Shown here: positions 8,715 to 33,762 of the stretch, in pieces
Layout: each line of letters starts with the position of its first letter
How positions within the stretch are numbered: the stretch's first letter is position 1
Source of the DNA: Clostridia bacterium
GTDB lineage: Bacteria; Bacillota; Clostridia; UMGS1883
Direction: 5' to 3'
Length of the DNA: 64,000 bases
Assembly: GCA_017472685.1 (NCBI GenBank)
Contig: JAFUOO010000022.1
Location: 77,483 to 141,482 of the forward strand
The notes under the pieces: generated by a model
Told to the model about the DNA's origin: nothing
Databases searched by the model: none
Seen by the model: the letters and a program-made list of their open reading frames with translations, nothing else
Position numbers and translations under genes: made by a program

Positions 8715-9692
8715 TTATCCCCTTTCTGTAACAATACTGGGCTCAACATCATCAAAAGTGAATGCTGTGAGCGGGCCTTTTGTTTCGCTATCTTCGCCTG
8801 CCTGGAACTCGCCGTAGAATGTGTCAATATCCTTGATGAACTTGCGGTTGAAAAGGTGAAGCGGAATGCCCTGAGGACAAACACGGCTGCATTCACCGCA
8901 GTCAGTACATCTGCCTGCAACATGGAAGGCACGGATAATGTGGAACATCTTTTCTTCGAAGGAGTCAACGTTTGCCTTTGTTGCTTCGTCAAACTTATTT
9001 GAGTCAAATACGCACTTACGGCAGGAGCAAGCAGGGCATACGTTACGGCATGCGTTACAACGGATACACTTACTAAGCTCCTTCTTGAAAAATTCAAACT
9101 TTTCCATGGGGCTCATTGCTTCAATTTTTTCGATTTCGGCAAAGCGTTCCGCATCCTTTGTATCACGGCTGTCGAGCATTACTTCATCACAAATCTGATG
9201 CTCTTTGCCCTTACAAACGTGGCAGCGTTCAAGCATAGCGTCGTTGTAGCTTACTTCTTTATCACCGTAAAGTGTTTTAACTGTGAGTGTTTCGCAGTCG
9301 GAGTTAATGTCGGCACCGCTAACTTCAAGGATACCCTTAACACCCATAGCCTTAATAGCCTCAATATCAAGCTTACCCTTACAGCCAACGCCGATGATGT
9401 AAGCCTTTTCGCGGTCAACTCTGTGTTCCTTTATAAGCTGGTTGAAGCTGTAGGTATCGCAGGGCTTTAAGAACACAAGTGTCTTGCCGTCCTTCTTACT
9501 TGCTTCAATCATGTACTTTGAAAGGTTTGCACCACAGAAGCCGTCATAGACAAAGTCATTGTCTAAGCTTTCTGCAGTTTCAAAATAGGAGGGTTCGGGG
9601 TTGAAGCCTAAATCGCCTTTTTTCCAACCAAGGACACGAGCAACTTCACCCGATGCCAAAAGTTCTTTTGCGCGGTCGATTAATCTTTGCAT
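8715..9692 (-). CDS. F420-hydrogenase-beta-like (FrhB/FlxC-type) Fe-S flavoprotein
   Basis: 325 aa with CIRCNACRNVCPAC and CTDCGECSRVCP motifs, and the typical Hdr-cluster context. Confidence 0.6.
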   Translation of the reverse strand: MQRLIDRAKELLASGEVARVLGWKKGDLGFNPEPSYFETAESLDNDFVYDGFCGANLSKYMIEASKKDGKTLVFLKPCDTYSFNQLIKEHRVDREKAYIIGVGCKGKLDIEAIKAMGVKGILEVSGADINSDCETLTVKTLYGDKEVSYNDAMLERCHVCKGKEHQICDEVMLDSRDTKDAERFAEIEKIEAMSPMEKFEFFKKELSKCIRCNACRNVCPACSCRKCVFDSNKFDEATKANVDSFEEKMFHIIRAFHVAGRCTDCGECSRVCPQGIPLHLFNRKFIKDIDTFYGEFQAGEDSETKGPLTAFTFDDVEPSIVTERG

Positions 9693-16054: not shown

Positions 16055-16342
16055 TCAGCGATATAAATTCCTTGCGGAATTTGCGATATTCCCCTTTGGG
16101 GAGCGATATGTTGCAAGCAACGTGATATGTCCTGCGGGACGTTGGGAATTTATATTATATCGAGTTTGTAGGGACCGGCGTCCTCGACGGTCCGAAAAAA
16201 CATATCGAATTTACGAAGTAAATATATCGAGCAAACGAAGTCTGCATATCGACAAACAAGCTGTCTTTTTATATAAAAAGCTTGAAATTCGGGGTTTTGT
16301 GTGCTATAATGGCAAGGATTTGGAAAAAGAAAGGTGAATAAA

Positions 16343-26393: not shown

Positions 26394-27632
26394 ATGGCTT
26401 ACAAAGAGCTTGTAAAAAGCTTTGAAAAAATAAGAATGTATATGCGTGATTTTTATGTTTACGGCTTTAAAACGCGCAATGATTTCAATAAAAAAAGCCT
26501 TCGTAGCTATGATGACGAAAAGCGCAGGATAGAGAGCTATCTGGGAAATTATATGTATTTTGAAAGCTCAAGTGACGGAAAAAGAGTTTTTTTATCAATC
26601 GACAGCAGAGAGGCTGTGCACAATCCGCTTTTTAAGGCATGGAAAGCAAAGAGCTTTACCGACGGTGACATAACACTGCACTTTATATTGTGCGATATTT
26701 TGTCAAAAGGGGTAAGTATGTCACCTGTTGATATTGTAGCAGAGGTTGACAGGTATTTGTCTGTATTTGAAAAGCCTATGACCTTTGACGAGTCCACCGT
26801 AAGAAAAAAGCTGAAGGAATACGAAAAAACAGGTATTGTAGTCAGCGAAAAGCAGTCGCGGAAAACACTCTACCGCATGGCAGAATGTACAGACATTTCC
26901 CATATGACAGATATGCTCAACTTTTTTGCCGAGGCATCTCCGTTAGGTGTTATTGGCTCGTTTTTGCTGGATAAAACACAGGAGAAGAAAACAAGCTTTT
27001 CCTTCAAGCACCATTACATAACCGCCACCATGGATTGTGGGATTTTATACAGGCTCCTTTGCGCAATCCATGAAAGAAAAAGCTGTGAGACACAGATTGT
27101 TTCCGCAAAAACAGGAGCAGAGTATGCCTATAGCATTGTTCCTTTACGAGTGTTGTGGAGCGTGCAATCCGGGCGTTATTATTGCATGGGCTATAACAAT
27201 TTAAGGCATAGAATAGAAACCTACAGGATTGACCACATAACCGATGTAAAGAAAGGGGATGTGAGCCCTGATTTTGACAAGTACCGCACAAGGCTTGCCA
27301 ACATAGAAAAGCACATGTGGGGTGCATCTGTTCCCATAGCTAAGGACAAACTGCAAACGGTATCGTTCACACTTTTTGTAAACGAAGGTGAAGAATACAT
27401 AATAAGGCGTCTTGAGCGAGAAAAAAGGTGTGGCAGCATAGAGCAGGTTGATGAAAATCATTATAAATTTACTGCCACCGTTGCAGATGAATGGGAATTA
27501 ACCCCCTGGATAAGAACATTTATCTGCCGTATAACCAATATAAGCTTTTCTGATAAGGAAAACGAGAAAAGGTTTAAAAATGATATAGCTGCCATGTGTA
27601 CGCTTTACGGTATCGGAGGTGAAAAGGTATGA
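26394..27632 (+). CDS. WYL-domain protein (HTH-WYL-WCX architecture), PafB/C-like
   Basis: The central region (IVPLRVLWSVQSGRYYCMGYN...RIETYRIDHI) resembles a WYL domain. It is translationally coupled to a second WYL gene. Confidence 0.5.
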   Translation: MAYKELVKSFEKIRMYMRDFYVYGFKTRNDFNKKSLRSYDDEKRRIESYLGNYMYFESSSDGKRVFLSIDSREAVHNPLFKAWKAKSFTDGDITLHFILCDILSKGVSMSPVDIVAEVDRYLSVFEKPMTFDESTVRKKLKEYEKTGIVVSEKQSRKTLYRMAECTDISHMTDMLNFFAEASPLGVIGSFLLDKTQEKKTSFSFKHHYITATMDCGILYRLLCAIHERKSCETQIVSAKTGAEYAYSIVPLRVLWSVQSGRYYCMGYNNLRHRIETYRIDHITDVKKGDVSPDFDKYRTRLANIEKHMWGASVPIAKDKLQTVSFTLFVNEGEEYIIRRLEREKRCGSIEQVDENHYKFTATVADEWELTPWIRTFICRITNISFSDKENEKRFKNDIAAMCTLYGIGGEKV

Positions 27633-28531
27633 TGTTTTCCGAGCTTTACGGAGCATACTACAATACTGTTGCAAAGCTTATTGAACATGCCATTGACGGA
27701 AACCTTACACTTGACCTTATGCGTGAAATTATTAACAGCAACGCCTTTTCGGAAAGCGGATGGCTTATTGAGGATGCAATAAAAACAGAGCGTTGGCAGC
27801 TTATTACACAAGACTGGAAAACACCTGTTACGTGTAAGCCTGTAATGCCATTAACCGAGCTTGAAAAGAGCTGGCTTAAGGCAATCAGCCTGGATGAAAG
27901 AGTAAAGCTCTTTGGTGTGGATTTTGGTTTTCTTGAAGGTGTTGAACCGCTTTTTACAAGTGAAGACATAAGAATTTATGACCAATATCTTGACGGAGAT
28001 AATTACTCGGATGCGGGATATATTGAGCGTTTTAAAATAATACTGGAAGCCGTAAAAAAGGGTCTGCCTCTTGAAATTGTAATGCTCAACCGCCGTGGCG
28101 AAGAAATACTCAGATACGTTCAACCAAAAAAGATAGAATATTCACCCAAGGACGATAAGTTCCGTCTTATTGCCAGAGGTCTCAGGAGCTTTGAAACAAT
28201 AAATCTGCAGAAGATTACCTCCTGCAAAATAAAGGACGGCAAGCTCAGATTTGAGCGAAGAACACAAAAAGAGGAGCCCTCCTTTGTAACCTTTGAGCTC
28301 TATGACGAGCGAAAGGCATTGGAGAGAGTGCTTTTGCACTTTGCACATCTTAAAAAGAAAACCGTGCAGACAGGGGACAACACCTATTTGGTAACCATCT
28401 ATTACGATAAGTTCGACGAAACGGAAATCCTGATAAGGATACTGTCCTTCGGGCCTATGATAAAGGTTACGGCACCTGATAAGTTTGTAGAGCTTGTAAA
28501 AGAAAGACTAATTAAACAGCTGGAAATTTGA
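27629..28531 (+). CDS. WYL-domain protein, second member of the tandem pair
   Basis: LEIVMLNRRGEEILRYVQPKKIEYSPKDDKFRLIARG is a WYL-like core. Its start overlaps the upstream stop (ATGA). Confidence 0.5.
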   Translation: MMFSELYGAYYNTVAKLIEHAIDGNLTLDLMREIINSNAFSESGWLIEDAIKTERWQLITQDWKTPVTCKPVMPLTELEKSWLKAISLDERVKLFGVDFGFLEGVEPLFTSEDIRIYDQYLDGDNYSDAGYIERFKIILEAVKKGLPLEIVMLNRRGEEILRYVQPKKIEYSPKDDKFRLIARGLRSFETINLQKITSCKIKDGKLRFERRTQKEEPSFVTFELYDERKALERVLLHFAHLKKKTVQTGDNTYLVTIYYDKFDETEILIRILSFGPMIKVTAPDKFVELVKERLIKQLEI

Positions 28532-28534
28532 AAA

Positions 28535-28564
28535 AGTTGCGAAATGTTTTCGCAACTTTTTTTC
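28535..28564 (+). terminator. rho-independent terminator; also left copy of an approx. 50-bp direct repeat
   Basis: agttgcgaaatgttttcgcaact followed by ttttttt. Confidence 0.75.
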
Positions 28565-28605
28565 CGTGCCAAAATACAAAAAATGGGCTATTATGTAATC
28601 AACAA
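28546..28605. repeat. direct repeat copy A (ttttcgcaactttttttccgtg... aaaata..aaatggg.tatt..gtaat)
   Basis: It shares a 22-nt exact core and about 85% identity over about 55 bp with 31044-31100. Confidence 0.7.
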
Positions 28606-28638
28606 AGCAATTACATAAATGAAAGGACGTTATATTTT

Positions 28639-28812
28639 ATGAATTTTGTAGCATCTGTTTTAACAGGAGCAAGCCTTGGGAGTATGATGGGGAGCACGGT
28701 TGCAACCATTGGAAAAAAGTCGGTTGATGTGGCTATTGCCATAGGAACACTGGTTGGTGCAGCAATAGGTCTTATTGCTGAAATGGCAGAAACACGAAGA
28801 AAAGAAAGGTAG
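28639..28812 (+). CDS. mini membrane protein with glycine-zipper motif (57 aa)
   Basis: ATG with AAAGGA ribosome-binding site. GxxxGxxxG-type hydrophobic segment. Confidence 0.3.
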   Translation: MNFVASVLTGASLGSMMGSTVATIGKKSVDVAIAIGTLVGAAIGLIAEMAETRRKER

Positions 28813-28820
28813 GATTAACA

Positions 28821-29165
28821 ATGGCTATATACAAACCCGGAAGACCTGTAAAATATAACCTTGGCACAGAAAAAGGTACAAAACCGCCTTCTAAGCCGGG
28901 CGAATACCGGATAAGAGACAACTCTGGGCAGATATCCTATGTGGGCGAAACAAACAACCTTGCCCGCAGGATGTATCAGCACACCAAAAGCGGAAAGCTG
29001 TCTGTGGAGAAGGGTAACAGTACCTTTGAGTATAAGATTGCCGACGGCAGGTCAAGCTCAAGAACAAGGCGTATCCACGAGAAAGAGAAAATAGCAAAGC
29101 ACAATCCTTATCTTAATAAATCAGGCGGAGGAGAAGGCAGGCTTGCAAAAAAGAAAGGTGCATGA
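28821..29165 (+). CDS. small GIY-YIG nuclease-domain protein
   Basis: GEYRIRDNSGQISYVGETNNLARRMYQH fits the GIY-(x10)-YIG...R...H/Q pattern. It has a basic C-terminal tail. Confidence 0.6.
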   Translation: MAIYKPGRPVKYNLGTEKGTKPPSKPGEYRIRDNSGQISYVGETNNLARRMYQHTKSGKLSVEKGNSTFEYKIADGRSSSRTRRIHEKEKIAKHNPYLNKSGGGEGRLAKKKGA

Positions 29166-29208
29166 AAAAAGCAGAAAAGCGAAAGCTTTTCTGCTTTTTT
29201 GTTATATG

Positions 29209-30978
29209 TTACTCGTCATCAGAGGAGTCGGTTTCATCTTCATCGGGCTGAATAAGCTCAGGAGCAAGCCAGTCAGATTCAGGACGGCAGATGAGGCGTG
29301 CATTGTTATAAGCCATTTCGTGAGTGAGAATGGTATTAATCTGATAATAAATTTCACCGTCGTCACGGATGCGGCGTTCAACCACCAGTGCTATAGGCTT
29401 ATCATCGTTGTCGTCAAATCGAACGGGGATAAGCCAGGAAAGTGTATTATCTTCAGGATAATAACAAGGAATGGCAGAACGCCAGTTCCAACGCACATTG
29501 CGAAGAGCATTTTCCGTAAATTGTTTTAACCTATCCTTAAGTGACTGAAAATCTTTCCCTAACTCTGCAGAGGCAGAGAGTTCATCATGGTCTTTGATAT
29601 AATCGTAGATTTGTTGTCTCTTGTCTTTAACGGAAATTTCGTCGTTGTCAAGCATTTTTCGTATGGCACCATTATTCCAATAAATTTTGAAGAAGGATAA
29701 CGGCAAACGGTCAAAGCGCTCTTTTATAATATGCTTAAAGTTAATTTCTGTTGTGGGGTTAATCGGCGGCTGCAAAAAGGTGTCTTCATGTTTGCTGAAA
29801 TATACCGGTCTGGACGGAAGATTGGATGAAAAGTGTTCGTTGAATATTTTTCCGTCACCATAGGTTTTACCCGTATCGCTGTCAATAAACGCTATAAATT
29901 TGTATTGATGTGGGAGGTGTAACGGACTGCATTCATTTTTAGCTGAGTCAACCTTTTTGAAAAGTGCATAAATCTCTTTGTATTCTTTATCGGGAAGACC
30001 GGTATTGAACGCTGCATAATTTCCGCTAAAGCATATCTGATTGTTGAAAGCAGCAGAAGTGTTGCCTGAAATATAATTGTTGTAAAGTCGGCAAAACGTG
30101 TAATTAAGATAGTTGAATAAAATGCTGTCTTTCTTTGTGCCTAAAGACCAGTGTTCAGGCAGAGTTTTTGAAGCAAGATTGCCGATTGCGTCGAAAAAGT
30201 TGTCAAAGGATGCCCATTTCTGAAGCCACAGCTTTTTAGGGAACAGCTCAAGCGACGGGTTTTCATATATTAAATGCTGATAATACCAACCAGTACCGCG
30301 TATTCCTTTACGGTAAGAAAATAAAGCATAGACTGTTTTTTCTTTATTTTCTTTGGTATCTGTAAAAGTGAAACCCGTATCGATACAACGCGACGATAAA
30401 TATATTGGATTATTTAGTGTAGCCCCGTCACGATTTATGTATATGGATTTATCCTTGTTTGCATTAACAGTATTATGTATATCCTGAGCCGGGGTGGTTG
30501 TATCACCGCAAAGGGCAACTATATCGCTCTTTAAGTCGTTCCAGTCATCAAAAAGGTCGTCCTTAATCGGAGCTACAAGCTTTTCGCAGTACCATATAGT
30601 TTTGTTGTCTTTATCTTTTACACATAAAAGTTTAAGACAAGCTCCTTCTTTATCAGGAATACCTGTTTTTAACACAAGACGGTTATTGTCAGATGCTATT
30701 TCAGAATCCGAAAGCTTGTAATAGGTTTCTTTAATTGTTTTCAAGAGCTTAGCCTTCTGCTCCGATTCGGATAAGCCTTCAAAAAAACCTTCATGTGCAT
30801 GTTTTTTTGCGTATGCAAATATCATATCATCTTTTAATGTGATGAATTTGTCAAATTCAACTCGGGACGGAGTCGGCGTTATTACTTTATCCTCCTGAAT
30901 CTGAGGAGCGGAGGCTTGCTGACTAACAGTAGCTTTAGATTCGGTTGATTGTCTGAATATCTTTTTTAATAAGTTCAT
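29209..30978 (-). CDS. large hypothetical protein (589 aa) with an acidic C-terminal tail; low GC
   Basis: Long ORF convergent with the GIY-YIG gene. No confident family. Ends ...PDEDETDSSDDE. Confidence 0.5.
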   Translation of the reverse strand: MNLLKKIFRQSTESKATVSQQASAPQIQEDKVITPTPSRVEFDKFITLKDDMIFAYAKKHAHEGFFEGLSESEQKAKLLKTIKETYYKLSDSEIASDNNRLVLKTGIPDKEGACLKLLCVKDKDNKTIWYCEKLVAPIKDDLFDDWNDLKSDIVALCGDTTTPAQDIHNTVNANKDKSIYINRDGATLNNPIYLSSRCIDTGFTFTDTKENKEKTVYALFSYRKGIRGTGWYYQHLIYENPSLELFPKKLWLQKWASFDNFFDAIGNLASKTLPEHWSLGTKKDSILFNYLNYTFCRLYNNYISGNTSAAFNNQICFSGNYAAFNTGLPDKEYKEIYALFKKVDSAKNECSPLHLPHQYKFIAFIDSDTGKTYGDGKIFNEHFSSNLPSRPVYFSKHEDTFLQPPINPTTEINFKHIIKERFDRLPLSFFKIYWNNGAIRKMLDNDEISVKDKRQQIYDYIKDHDELSASAELGKDFQSLKDRLKQFTENALRNVRWNWRSAIPCYYPEDNTLSWLIPVRFDDNDDKPIALVVERRIRDDGEIYYQINTILTHEMAYNNARLICRPESDWLAPELIQPDEDETDSSDDE

Positions 30979-31043
30979 TTAAATCTTCTCCTGTCTATGA
31001 TAAAGAATTATAGCATAAATGAAAGTGCATTTGCAACAATTTG

Positions 31044-31100
31044 TGAGTTTTCGCAACTTTTTTTCCGTGTAAAAATAAATGGGATATTTTAGTATGTAAT
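31044..31100. repeat. direct repeat copy B
   Basis: ttttcgcaactttttttccgtgtaaaaataaatgggatattttagtatgtaat matches 28546-28605. Confidence 0.7.
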
Positions 31101-31453
31101 TGTCGGACGGATGCGGGTGTGTTGCCTCACCCGGGTGCATAAGGTGTACCAAAATGTATGCTTGCCGACAACGCAGGTTCAACTCCTGCCTGTACATGTG
31201 TACAGCCAAGTGGTTTTGGATATCGTCCGAAAGGACTCGCCTTAAAGAAAAAGTCTAAAACGCAATTTCTCCGCCTTCTCTGAACAGAGTTTCGGGCAAT
31301 GAGTAAAGGATTTTGCCAAGCGTGGATACCGTATGCTGTCGCATAATGCCAGAGCACAGCTTCCGCACAATGGGAGAACATACTCAAATTGCTTGCCATC
31401 CCTACTCATGAGAAATTGCAACGATTATTATTACCGAAAGGGGTTTATACATA

Positions 31454-32548
31454 ATGAAAAGAATAACAGTTAAAGAAACACAGAGAGCACTTTTATTTAA
31501 AAACGGAAAATTTGAGGGCGTACTTGAAAGCGGCAGATATTTCGACTCGAAAAACAAGCTGTTTGTAATCTGTTCGATTGACAAGGCGGTGGATACATCC
31601 AACTGTTCTTTGGAGGTTATGCTGAAAAACAACAGCTTCAAGGCTGCCGTTACAACAGTGGAAGTTAAGGATGCACACCTTAAAATGCATTTTGTAAACG
31701 GTAAGTTTACACATGTTCTTTCCTCGGGTAGCTATGCGTTCTGGAACGCAGCAGGTGAGCACACCTTTTGGGAGGTTGACCTGTCCTCTCCCGAGGTTGA
31801 TGCAGGCTTTCCCGAGTATCTTTTCAAAATGATGCCTGCAGCCTACTACGAGAAAATACAGGTTCGGGAATACGAAAAAGCAAGGCTTTATTTTGATAAA
31901 AAATTTGTACGCCTTCTTGACAGCGGTGTTCACTACTTCTGGAAAACAAATGTAGAGGTTGATTATTCGCTGGCAGATACACGCCTTTTGGAAAAGAACA
32001 TTACAGGACAGGAAATGCTCACACGTGACAAGGTCTCTGTAAGGATAAACTGCGTATGCACCTACCGTATTGTAGATTATGTTAAAATAGTAACCGAGGT
32101 TGATGATTACGAGGGTCAGCTTCACACTGCGCTGCAGATGGCACTCCGTGATTTTGTAGGTCGCTACAGACTGGACGAGATCCTTGAAGAAAAGGAAAAA
32201 ATGAGCGAATATGTTCTTGAAAAGCTCAAGGAAAAGGAAGAGGAGCTCTATATTGACGTTAAAAGCGCAGGTGTTAAGGACATTATTCTGCCCGGAGAAA
32301 TCCGCGATATTATGAACACTGTTCTTATTGCGGAGAAAAAGGCACAGGCTAATGTTATATCGCGTCGTGAGGAGGTTGCGTCAACACGCTCACTTCTTAA
32401 TACTGCACGGCTTATGGACGAAAATGAAACACTTTACAAGCTTAAAGAGCTTGAATACATGGAAAGAATATGCGAAAATGTAGGTAATATAAATATTGAC
32501 AACGGAACTAATATAATTGCACAGCTTTCACGTCTGTGCGAAAGGTGA
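31454..32548 (+). CDS. SPFH/band-7 domain protein (no obvious transmembrane anchor)
   Basis: The central region (TRDKVSVRINCVCTYRIVD...AQANVISRREEVASTRSL) is typical of stomatin/prohibitin-like domains. Confidence 0.55.
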   Translation: MKRITVKETQRALLFKNGKFEGVLESGRYFDSKNKLFVICSIDKAVDTSNCSLEVMLKNNSFKAAVTTVEVKDAHLKMHFVNGKFTHVLSSGSYAFWNAAGEHTFWEVDLSSPEVDAGFPEYLFKMMPAAYYEKIQVREYEKARLYFDKKFVRLLDSGVHYFWKTNVEVDYSLADTRLLEKNITGQEMLTRDKVSVRINCVCTYRIVDYVKIVTEVDDYEGQLHTALQMALRDFVGRYRLDEILEEKEKMSEYVLEKLKEKEEELYIDVKSAGVKDIILPGEIRDIMNTVLIAEKKAQANVISRREEVASTRSLLNTARLMDENETLYKLKELEYMERICENVGNINIDNGTNIIAQLSRLCER

Positions 32549-32553
32549 TTAAA

Positions 32554-33762
32554 ATGATTGAAATTAAAGGATTATATAATACTGCACTTTGCTATACGGA
32601 CACTCTTGAGGAAGAGTCGGAAAAGCAGATTGCAAAGTTTTGCGACAGGGAAGAATTCAAGGATTGCCGTATACGCATTATGCCCGACGTACACGCAGGT
32701 AAGGGGTGTACAATAGGCACAACCATGACGCTCATCGATAAGGTTGTGCCTAACATGGTGGGCGTTGACATAGGGTGCGGTATGGAAACTGTTAAGATAG
32801 CCGAAAAGGAAGTTGACTTTGAAAAGCTTGGCAGAATTATAAGAGGGAACATACCCTCGGGGTTTAATGTGCGAAAGTTTTCACACAGGTACAATGATGA
32901 AATCGACCTTAATGAATTAAGGTGCATTGAGTATATTAACAAAGAGCGTGCGGTGCATAGCCTCGGCACACTTGGAGGCGGAAATCACTTTATAGAAATG
33001 GACCGTGACGACGAGGGGAATTTGTACCTTGTTATACATTCGGGCAGCAGGCATTTGGGTGTTGAGGTGGCTGAATATTACCAGGAATCGGGCTTTCGGA
33101 TGCTTTACGGAGGCTTCAGGACGCAGATTGAGGAAACTATAGCGTCTCTTAAGGCATACGGACGTGAAAATGAGATTGAGAGAACAATCAAGGATATACG
33201 CGATAAGATTAAAAAGGTGAGGCATGAACAGGAGTTTGCATATGTAGAGGGCGACCTTTTCGAGGATTATATTCACGATATGAGGATTGTACAGCGCTTT
33301 GCAACCTTGAACCGAAAGGCAATGTGTGATGTTATCTTTCGCGGAATGGGCTTTAACGAGGTTGAAAGCTTTACAACAATTCATAATTATATTGATACTG
33401 ATGAAATGATACTCAGAAAGGGAGCGGTTTCAGCAAAGAAGGGCGAAAGACTTCTGATTCCGATTAATATGCGTGACGGAAGCATTATCTGCACAGGTAA
33501 GGGCAATGAGGAATGGAATTGCTCCGCACCTCACGGTGCAGGCAGGCTTATGAGCCGCAAAGCGGCGTTCAAGGCACTTGATATGGATGAGTATATTGAG
33601 CAGATGAAAAATGTTTACTCCACAAGCGTTGTACCCGATACATTGGATGAGTCACCCATGGCATATAAAAGCATGGAGCATATTATATCGCAGATTGAAC
33701 CTACCTGTGAGATTGAGGCGATTATAAAGCCTGTATATAACTTCAAGGATTCGGGAAGATAG
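32554..33762 (+). CDS. rtcB: RtcB family RNA ligase
   Basis: Metal-binding motifs MPDVHAGKG, GGGNHFIE and HGAGR. An ATG with GAAAGGTG ribosome-binding site lies inside the ORF-track start and overlaps the SPFH gene end. Confidence 0.85.
   Translation: MIEIKGLYNTALCYTDTLEEESEKQIAKFCDREEFKDCRIRIMPDVHAGKGCTIGTTMTLIDKVVPNMVGVDIGCGMETVKIAEKEVDFEKLGRIIRGNIPSGFNVRKFSHRYNDEIDLNELRCIEYINKERAVHSLGTLGGGNHFIEMDRDDEGNLYLVIHSGSRHLGVEVAEYYQESGFRMLYGGFRTQIEETIASLKAYGRENEIERTIKDIRDKIKKVRHEQEFAYVEGDLFEDYIHDMRIVQRFATLNRKAMCDVIFRGMGFNEVESFTTIHNYIDTDEMILRKGAVSAKKGERLLIPINMRDGSIICTGKGNEEWNCSAPHGAGRLMSRKAAFKALDMDEYIEQMKNVYSTSVVPDTLDESPMAYKSMEHIISQIEPTCEIEAIIKPVYNFKDSGR

Follow-up and report, generated by a model that had tools for sequence, protein, structure and literature searches.

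Overview of the locus

The DNA analysed here is a 64,000-nt stretch of a Clostridia bacterium (contig JAFUOO010000022.1, positions 77,483 to 141,482 of the forward strand), hereafter called the window. Judged by its similarity to related loci, it holds a Clostridial RNA-repair locus which is composed of two co-transcribed WYL genes (WYL1 and WYL2), a promoter/operator, tRNA-like or structured RNAs and a gene for the RNA ligase RtcB. In this locus, a pair of direct repeats brackets three further genes, which encode a 57-aa hydrophobic peptide, a 114-aa GIY-YIG protein and a 589-aa DUF3825 protein and are referred to as the cargo. We consider it probable (about 0.7) that the repeats are duplicated copies of the WYL1-WYL2/RtcB promoter, and that a lineage-specific nuclease cargo has been wired into the locus by this duplication. 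The reading rests on comparison, namely of the locus architecture, a 20-mer in the repeats with its fixed spacing, the presence or absence of a hairpin, RNA covariation and the distribution of the cargo, while the function of the cargo is inferred. Coordinates of all features are summarized in Table 1.

The repeat pair in the window

The 23-mer GTTTTCGCAACTTTTTTTCCGTG occurs exactly twice in the window (28546-28568 and 31047-31069), and these are still the only two sites when up to 3 mismatches are allowed, with a chance expectation of 0.01. The ungapped similarity of the two copies extends over 54 nt with 78% identity (28546-28599 vs 31047-31100), and both copies share the 3' end TA(T/G)TATGTAAT. 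A preliminary description of this DNA, made from the sequence alone, had proposed a direct repeat of about 55 bp at both ends of the insert, which is confirmed by these figures. It had also taken the left copy to double as the terminator of the WYL operon, and this holds as well: a hairpin (-19.3 kcal/mol, z -4.9) immediately follows the WYL2 stop codon, its 3' arm is the beginning of the repeat, and seven T come next. Two other claims have to be given up. The right copy was called an orphan terminator-like element, and no significant hairpin was found there (-6.8 kcal/mol, z 0.1; no better than shuffled sequence). The GC content was said to drop between the repeats, and the insert has 39.5% GC vs 41.4% in the window, where stretches of 2.4 kb have a standard deviation of 3.0% and 30% of these stretches reach the value of the insert or fall below it.

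The duplicated segment begins 3 nt before the 20-mer and ends at about the transcription start (about -55 to +1), and by this extent it appears to be the promoter and nothing else. The spacers between the 20-mer and the -10 box are more alike in the two window copies than either is to those of other loci, which fits a duplication within the lineage of the window.

The 20-mer and its promoter across Clostridia

Relatives of WYL1 were scanned with one genome per species. WYL1 has more than 6,800 homologues, most of them more than 50% identical; the scan gave 531 relatives, from which 80 loci were fetched and compared. It turned out that the core 20-mer, TTCGCA[G/A]CTTTTTTTCCGTG, is near-invariant. 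From about 75 loci, which belong to many families of Clostridia, 79 copies were aligned, and each of them has 0-3 mismatches. The consensus among the related loci is TTCGCAGCTTTTTTTCCGTG, and the window carries A for G at position 7. The WYL1 proteins of these loci are only about 50% identical, and the 20-mer is nonetheless near-invariant. Besides, the spacing from the 20-mer to a TAaAAT (-10) box is exactly 20 nt in all 79 copies, and the structured RNAs described below begin immediately past this box. In locus L174, RtcB is divergent from WYL1 and the motif is directed at RtcB. Taken together, the repeat is best read as the promoter/operator of the RtcB transcription unit, shared by hundreds of genomes, in which the 20-mer would span about -52 to -33 and overlap a weak -35 box.

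Generally, a terminator hairpin lies about 22 nt past the WYL2 stop codon in nearly every locus, and its 3' arm begins the 20-mer. The left arm varies between loci, often by way of G-U pairs, while the right arm is fixed, which argues that the hairpin acts in RNA as a terminator and that a second function keeps the right arm from varying. The upstream hairpin arm is missing from about 25 copies. These include the right copy of the window, the second copies in L037, L038, L042, L065 and L070, and the copies which are cut off from WYL2 by another terminator. With so many copies free of the arm, the conserved function of the 20-mer is not termination.

If the repeats came from a generic family of intrinsic terminators or intergenic repeats and had no specific role, the strong hairpin and the seven T of the left copy would be accounted for, and the preliminary description had itself named a common genome-wide terminator family as a finding that would speak against its view. 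We regard this explanation as close to negligible. There are only two copies in the 64 kb; in the fetched loci (about 1.2 Mb) the 20-mer stands beside WYL1-WYL2 and nowhere else; and in viral contigs the motif was found in 2 of 2.9 million, both of them at WYL1-WYL2-RtcB loci. Moreover, many copies have no hairpin, and neither the conserved CCGTG nor the conserved distance to the -10 box would be required in a terminator.

From the strict co-occurrence of motif and regulators, together with the known behaviour of WYL regulators, we infer that the 20-mer is the binding site of the WYL1/WYL2 pair. PafBC, a heterodimer which single-stranded DNA activates (PMC11804915), works at promoters without a normal -35 box (PMC8635444), and CapW represses until single-stranded DNA releases it (PMC11662680). 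Two related loci, L007 (Faecalimonas umbilicata; at 9510) and L022 (at 9922), have an additional 20-mer copy upstream of WYL1, which suggests autoregulation in some lineages; unlike these two, the window has no 20-mer copy upstream of WYL1.

The slot between WYL2 and RtcB

WYL2 comes directly after WYL1 in every related locus that is long enough to show it, and RtcB is located downstream of the pair, with or without an SPFH gene, in most related loci of sufficient length. In about 20 related loci, an SPFH homologue (56-60% identical) separates the RNA from RtcB. In the window, about 350 nt of non-coding DNA separate the right copy from the SPFH gene, and RtcB is next. The locus often includes, besides, either SPFH or a DUF2828/DUF7788 protein, which we take to be related to Ro60-type TROVE and vWA proteins. 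The genes called around the locus in the window are WYL1/WYL2, SPFH and an ArsC-like gene, and neither RtcR (CARF plus sigma-54 activator) nor RtcA is found among the called genes of the locus.

The peptide, the GIY-YIG protein and DUF3825 are absent from all 80 related WYL1-WYL2 loci. Empty sites, for which the preliminary description had suggested a search, were found in relatives: only 98-130 nt separate WYL2 from RtcB in L005, L011, L025 and L036, and in L040, L041 and L083 WYL2 is followed only by the RNA and SPFH before RtcB. A single 20-mer is present in most related loci that show the region. Other loci carry DUF2828+DUF7788, an AAA ATPase or BrnT in this place. An AAA ATPase gene is bracketed by two 20-mers in L037, L038 and L042, and other genes are bracketed in the same way in L065 and L070, so that promoter duplication around added genes is recurrent. 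By this comparison, the interval between WYL2 and RtcB is a variable slot whose cargo differs between lineages.

The preliminary description regarded the insert as a site-specifically inserted cassette. One part of this stands, as the genes are accessory relative to the 80 loci without them; the other part, in which the repeats would be attachment-site or target-site duplications left by a mobile element, is in our view improbable. It could draw on the single copy usual elsewhere and the two copies that bracket extra genes here and in five related loci, on the recurrence of the peptide/GIY-YIG/DUF3825 set at other genomic places, and on the mutual closeness of the window spacers. Nevertheless, no recombinase, transposase, integrase or relaxase was found in the Pfam-annotated genes within 10 kb on each side or in the cargo proteins, and there is no GC anomaly. 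The duplicated segment coincides exactly with the predicted promoter, and neither copy departs from the conserved 20-nt spacing; different cargo genes, unrelated to those here, are bracketed likewise, and the module occurs elsewhere without such a repeat.

The arrangement is, furthermore, stable across two species. Locus L004 (GCA_965321895.1), from a second species, has an identical gene order, and both repeat copies are kept almost base for base. Compared with L004, the blocks from WYL to GIY-YIG and from the RNA to RtcB show 90-98% DNA identity, whereas the chromosomal flanks show 76-86%. The near-identity of the repeats and the downstream RNA beside diverged flanks points to strong constraint and an old arrangement, and the higher identity of the WYL-to-RtcB block (26400-33760) than of the flanks would follow from very strong constraint or else from the locus having been exchanged recently. 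DUF3825 is the sole fast-diverging gene of the locus, with about 50% DNA and 42% protein identity vs 86-95% for the neighbouring proteins. Its diverged part (29346-30974 in the comparison with L004) has break points inside the 3' end of the gene and at the start codon. The divergence suggests allele replacement or diversifying selection.

Table 1. Features of the WYL-RtcB locus in the window (positions counted from the first nucleotide of the window)
Feature	Position	Strand	Evidence or description
WYL1	26394..27632	+	412 aa from ATG (start in the open reading frame list: TTG 26346); Pfam WYL E 8e-6; PADLOC WYL E 2.8e-12
WYL2 (WYL/WCX)	27629..28531	+	Overlaps the end of WYL1; Pfam WCX E 1e-3; PADLOC WYL E 9.8e-9
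WYL-operon intrinsic terminator hairpin	28531..28561	+	Arms 28531-28544 / 28548-28561, 100% complementary; 3' arm = start of left repeat
Left promoter/operator copy (predicted)	28546..28599	+	20-mer 28549-28568, 20-nt spacer, -10 box TATTAT 28589-28594
57-aa Gly/Ala-rich small hydrophobic peptide (glycine-zipper-like)	28639..28812	+	Open reading frame
114-aa stand-alone GIY-YIG protein	28821..29165	+	Pfam GIY-YIG E 8e-8
Perfect 16-bp palindromic hairpin between convergent GIY-YIG and DUF3825	29165..29200		Top terminator-like site
589-aa DUF3825 protein, acidic C-terminal tail	29209..30978	-	Pfam E 5e-46, residues 268-570
Sigma-70-like DUF3825 promoter (predicted)	31007..31036	-	TTGCAA, 18 nt, TG-n-TATAAT; 10/12 consensus plus extended -10 TG (consensus scan only)
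Right promoter/operator copy (predicted)	31047..31100	+	20-mer 31050-31069, 20-nt spacer, -10 box TAGTAT 31090-31095; no upstream hairpin arm
Structured non-coding RNA	31102..31250	+	T-arm-like hairpin 31173-31189, D-arm-like 31206-31219, GNRA hairpin 31225-31236
Second structured RNA domain, SPFH-gene leader	31293..31416	+	Covariation; covariance model R1 76 bits, E 1.8e-18
SPFH/Band-7 gene	31454..32548	+	Pfam Band_7 E 1.2e-25
RtcB RNA ligase gene	32554..33762	+	Pfam RtcB E 8.9e-59

Where the cargo normally lives

We surveyed 85 other GIY-YIG loci, 63 of which have enough upstream DNA. The GIY-YIG protein has at least 153 homologues (59-100% identical among those listed) and forms with them a tight family, about 112 aa in length, in which Y29, Y40, G42, R49/R50, H54, E87 and N99, the usual catalytic residues, are invariant. 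It turned out that most of them (49 of 63) have a divergent gene of about 360 aa beside GIY-YIG. Six of these regulators were tested, and every one of them is recognized by the PADLOC WYL model (E 3e-14 to 2e-8); it was this model that settled their class, the hhalign comparison with WYL1/WYL2 being marginal (E 8e-4 / 6e-3). One or two glycine-rich peptides, homologous to the 57-aa open reading frame by jackhmmer, lie between regulator and GIY-YIG in 36 of 85 loci. WYL1/WYL2, RtcB and SPFH are found at none of the 85 GIY-YIG loci, save for one marginal match to the WYL1 profile (L103), and the 20-mer is absent from the other GIY-YIG and DUF3825 loci searched. In summary, the cargo is, on this comparative evidence, the effector half of a separate WYL-regulated module which here has come under the WYL1/WYL2 promoter.

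The usual home of the GIY-YIG gene (L089-L173; for instance L127 4285-6339 and L146 3810-6339) consists of the divergent WYL gene, the glycine-rich peptide(s) or a 124-aa protein, and GIY-YIG. In the intergenic regions of this home module, repeats of GTTCC/GGAAC type were seen by eye, which may be a candidate operator of the 360-aa WYL regulator.

The preliminary description had proposed that the GIY-YIG and 589-aa proteins be checked for co-occurrence in other genomes. Their association does recur, as DUF3825 lies within 6 kb of GIY-YIG in 7 of 85 loci and is convergent and adjacent in L091 and L171 as in the window; in most loci it is not nearby. Other full-length DUF3825 genes adjoin Abi_2, an XRE-type HTH gene or AAA/STAND-type NTPases, and similar types of neighbour flank some of the GIY-YIG modules. 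A similar gene pair, an AAA ATPase (about 510 aa) together with a protein of 1,400-1,500 aa, lies beside DUF3825 in L085 (5442-11548) and beside the GIY-YIG module in L094 (6481-12158). The sharing of this ATPase/large-protein pair hints at a common defence-island neighbourhood.

This distribution bears on a further explanation, in which the three genes are ancestral to the locus and were lost in most lineages, while the two promoter copies represent an old two-operon design. The arrangement is conserved in two species, promoter duplication recurs and loci with several promoters are normal for this system, all of which would suit it. Yet none of the three genes was found in 80 loci from many families, GIY-YIG normally occurs outside RtcB loci with a different WYL regulator (the 49 of 63 above), and the spacer similarity of both copies points to a lineage-specific duplication. 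We hold an ancestral origin of the genes to be quite improbable, and the promoter duplication in the lineage of the window is still preferred.

Cargo genes in the window

The three genes listed by the preliminary description between the repeats are supported by open reading frames and Pfam. The largest product, which was said to have no recognisable family, belongs to DUF3825 (PF12873; 157.6 bits vs a cut-off of 27), and the matched residues span the whole profile. The 57-aa peptide has no match in Pfam, PADLOC or PHROGs and no informative one in NCBIfam, and the GIY-YIG protein has weak NCBIfam matches to the N-terminal region of UvrC (E 4e-4) and weak matches to phage endonucleases. The hairpin between the convergent GIY-YIG and DUF3825 genes is likely a bidirectional terminator.

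The predicted promoter of DUF3825 stands back to back with the right repeat copy. With its own promoter and an orientation that faces away, DUF3825 is not simply part of one WYL-driven operon. Control of the genes by WYL, as put forward in the preliminary description, is thus plausible for part of the cargo, given that the left copy corresponds to the promoter of the RtcB unit and that the GIY-YIG family elsewhere is found beside WYL genes, and does not extend readily to DUF3825. DUF3825 is often fused to an OST-HTH/LOTUS domain. Some homologues carry PF12872, whereas the window protein has instead a long N-terminal region with no OST-HTH match. The AlphaFold model of the protein is confident (pLDDT 83.6) and contains repeated units, each with a helix pair and then a four-stranded sheet. 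A Foldseek search of this model vs PDB gave nothing significant, no meaningful match came up when PDB sequences were searched with a DUF3825 profile, and PADLOC, NCBIfam and PHROGs gave no informative match. Literature searches found no paper mentioning DUF3825. An RNase function is a lead only.

A GIY-YIG homing endonuclease was considered and rejected, as the 114 aa comprise only the catalytic core with no joined DNA-binding domain, and the family, 60-70% identical, resides beside a WYL regulator in bacterial chromosomes. The features of type II toxin-antitoxin systems (two small adjacent genes, known toxin/antitoxin families) do not describe the cargo.

For the role of the cargo, the preliminary description had put forward a possible nuclease-based defence or addiction module, which matches no PADLOC system. 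We give somewhat less than an even chance to a set of defence-island-type effectors that would be induced by stress, cut nucleic acid and act on membranes. It is possible, if rather unlikely, that the cargo is instead an accessory of damage repair. On this alternative the architecture is the same, and the small GIY-YIG protein would be a damage-induced repair nuclease and not a defence or toxic effector, for which we see a similarly limited chance. E. coli Cho, which is SOS-induced and UvrC-like, offers a comparison. The weak match to the UvrC N-terminal GIY-YIG region, the apparent co-regulation with a repair ligase and the control of DNA-damage regulons by WYL regulators such as PafBC (PMC11804915) would speak for a repair nuclease. 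Its constant partner, though, is a small glycine-rich hydrophobic peptide, elsewhere it is found among genes typical of defence islands (STAND and AAA NTPases, Abi_2, type I restriction, NERD), and no DNA-binding or UvrB-interacting domain is contained within the 114 aa.

Structured RNAs downstream of the promoter

Two structured RNA domains lie between the right copy and the SPFH gene. In the first one, a helix UGCRY/RYGUA and the T-arm-like and D-arm-like hairpins show compensatory changes across 18-19 homologues, and the non-coding segment 31100-31199 is 98% identical to L004, above most coding DNA. The first RNA is a possible mimic of the tRNA elbow. Candidate outer helices (for instance GUCGG/CCGAC here and GCAAG/CUUGC elsewhere) were noticed by eye; the MAFFT alignment misaligned them, and folding based on it recovered only the conserved inner helices.

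The second domain forms the SPFH-gene leader; it contains 34 pairs, and changes on both sides are seen in 26 of these. Its alignment cells are paired at 89.5%, vs 35-44% when the partners are slid, and 0 of 500 shuffles reached the observed values. The covariance model R1 finds one copy per source in 22 sources and none elsewhere in 1.23 Mb, and all 22 sources show SPFH wherever the contig reaches far enough. This domain could be a riboswitch-like leader or a part of one long RNA.

Rfam gave no plus-strand family for either RNA, at the gathering threshold across the window and at E <= 10 in 28400-31600 and 31085-31460, and ARAGORN made no tRNA call on the RNA of the window. Loci without SPFH (L012, L022, L065, L076 and others) have one or several RNAs with a start like AAAGGCGCAGACAGCAA, and in L022, L076, L012 and L065 the Rfam tRNA model passes its threshold just downstream of the promoter. 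These tRNA-like elements usually stand ahead of a DUF2828+DUF7788 protein of about 485 aa, an arrangement that by analogy looks like the pairing of Y RNA with Ro-type proteins. Elsewhere in the window, at 16056-16133 (+), there is an unrelated Gut-1 RNA (Rfam RF01706, 52.2 bits, just over threshold), a family which is also present in L040.

Proposed mechanism and comparison with known systems

The observations can be joined as follows. In the lineage of the window, the effector part of a module that normally has its own WYL regulator would have been placed into the slot between WYL2 and RtcB. The transferred part would comprise the genes for the glycine-rich 57-aa peptide and the small GIY-YIG protein and, convergent to these, DUF3825, their companion in some genomes. 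Duplication of the entire promoter (about -55 to +1) would have given the pair of direct repeats. WYL1/WYL2 would bind the 20-mer and switch both promoters on upon sensing damaged or single-stranded nucleic acid, so that the left copy drives the peptide and GIY-YIG, the right copy drives the structured RNA, SPFH and RtcB, and both sets are co-induced. In the left copy, the 20-mer would also supply the 3' arm and the T-tract that terminate the WYL operon, and DUF3825 would have a separate promoter, which lies back to back with the right copy.

Several points weigh against this account. Whether the genes were inserted here or lost elsewhere is judged from their distribution only, and the transcription starts, the binding of WYL to the 20-mer and the inducing signal are deduced from sequence, which does not decide between activation and repression by the WYL pair. 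DUF3825 points away from both repeat copies and is predicted to be transcribed from neither. The cargo matches no known defence system in PADLOC. Besides, GIY-YIG enzymes normally leave DNA ends with 5'-phosphate and 3'-OH, which RtcB does not join, so that there is no obvious biochemical link between GIY-YIG and RtcB.

Three known systems resemble parts of the locus. In the Rtc operon (rtcBA with RtcR; rsr-yrlBA-rtcBA in Salmonella), the RtcB gene follows a tRNA-like non-coding RNA, as it may do in the window, and has an adjacent nucleic-acid-sensing regulator (PMC7790460, PMC4201824), and the rtc locus of Pseudomonas aeruginosa is reported to have an SPFH gene embedded too (PMC13086221). It differs in that the window has a WYL pair and a sigma-70-type promoter, not the sigma-54 activator RtcR with its CARF domain; neither RtcA nor a TROVE-type Ro60 is seen here, the RNAs match no Rfam family, and the locus offers a slot in which the cargo varies. 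PafBC, the heterodimeric WYL activator of DNA-damage genes in mycobacteria, is similar in its two adjacent WYL genes, in a conserved motif just upstream of the -10 box with a poor -35 box, and in the reuse of this motif at several promoters (PMC6789036, PMC8635444, PMC11804915), but phylum, motif and spacing are different. Here WYL1 and WYL2 are unequal in size, with no clearly detected HTH in WYL2, and the predicted targets are RNA-repair genes and cargo. The WYL defence repressors (CapW with CBASS and BrxR with BREX) stand beside the genes they control, as the regulator does in the usual home of GIY-YIG, and are responsive to damage or to single-stranded DNA (PMC11662680); no catalogued defence system includes the effectors found in the window, which are the small GIY-YIG protein, the glycine-rich peptide and DUF3825.

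Relative to these systems, the locus appears to be a variant, namely an RtcB repair locus under a WYL pair with a cargo slot that is served by promoter duplication. At the far end of speculation, and unlikely as a whole, the locus would be an undescribed RNA-damage regulon of gut Clostridia whose promoter is a portable socket that plugs foreign effectors into one alarm. Its cargo would be a GIY-YIG/membrane-peptide damage module beside a fast-evolving DUF3825, the latter perhaps an RNase of RelE/colicin-D fold whose RNA cuts are healed by the co-induced RtcB, making a cut-and-repair immune circuit.

Significance

Literature searches (DUF3825, DUF2828, WYL with RtcB, WYL with GIY-YIG) found no description of this locus, which may nevertheless have been described before. 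To the question of how RtcB-based RNA repair is switched on outside the proteobacteria, a candidate answer is offered here for many gut Clostridia, which consists of a WYL pair, a near-invariant 20-bp site and two structured RNAs that are not in Rfam. As far as the sequences can tell, the repeat is meaningful as a duplicated regulatory element and not as the scar of a mobile element. This would provide a simple evolutionary route, by which the promoter of a regulator is copied in front of a newcomer and unrelated stress or defence genes join an existing alarm regulator, and the duplication appears to have happened independently with other cargo. In conclusion, two uncharacterised families, DUF3825 and the small GIY-YIG protein along with the glycine-rich peptide, would gain a defined regulatory context for functional testing.

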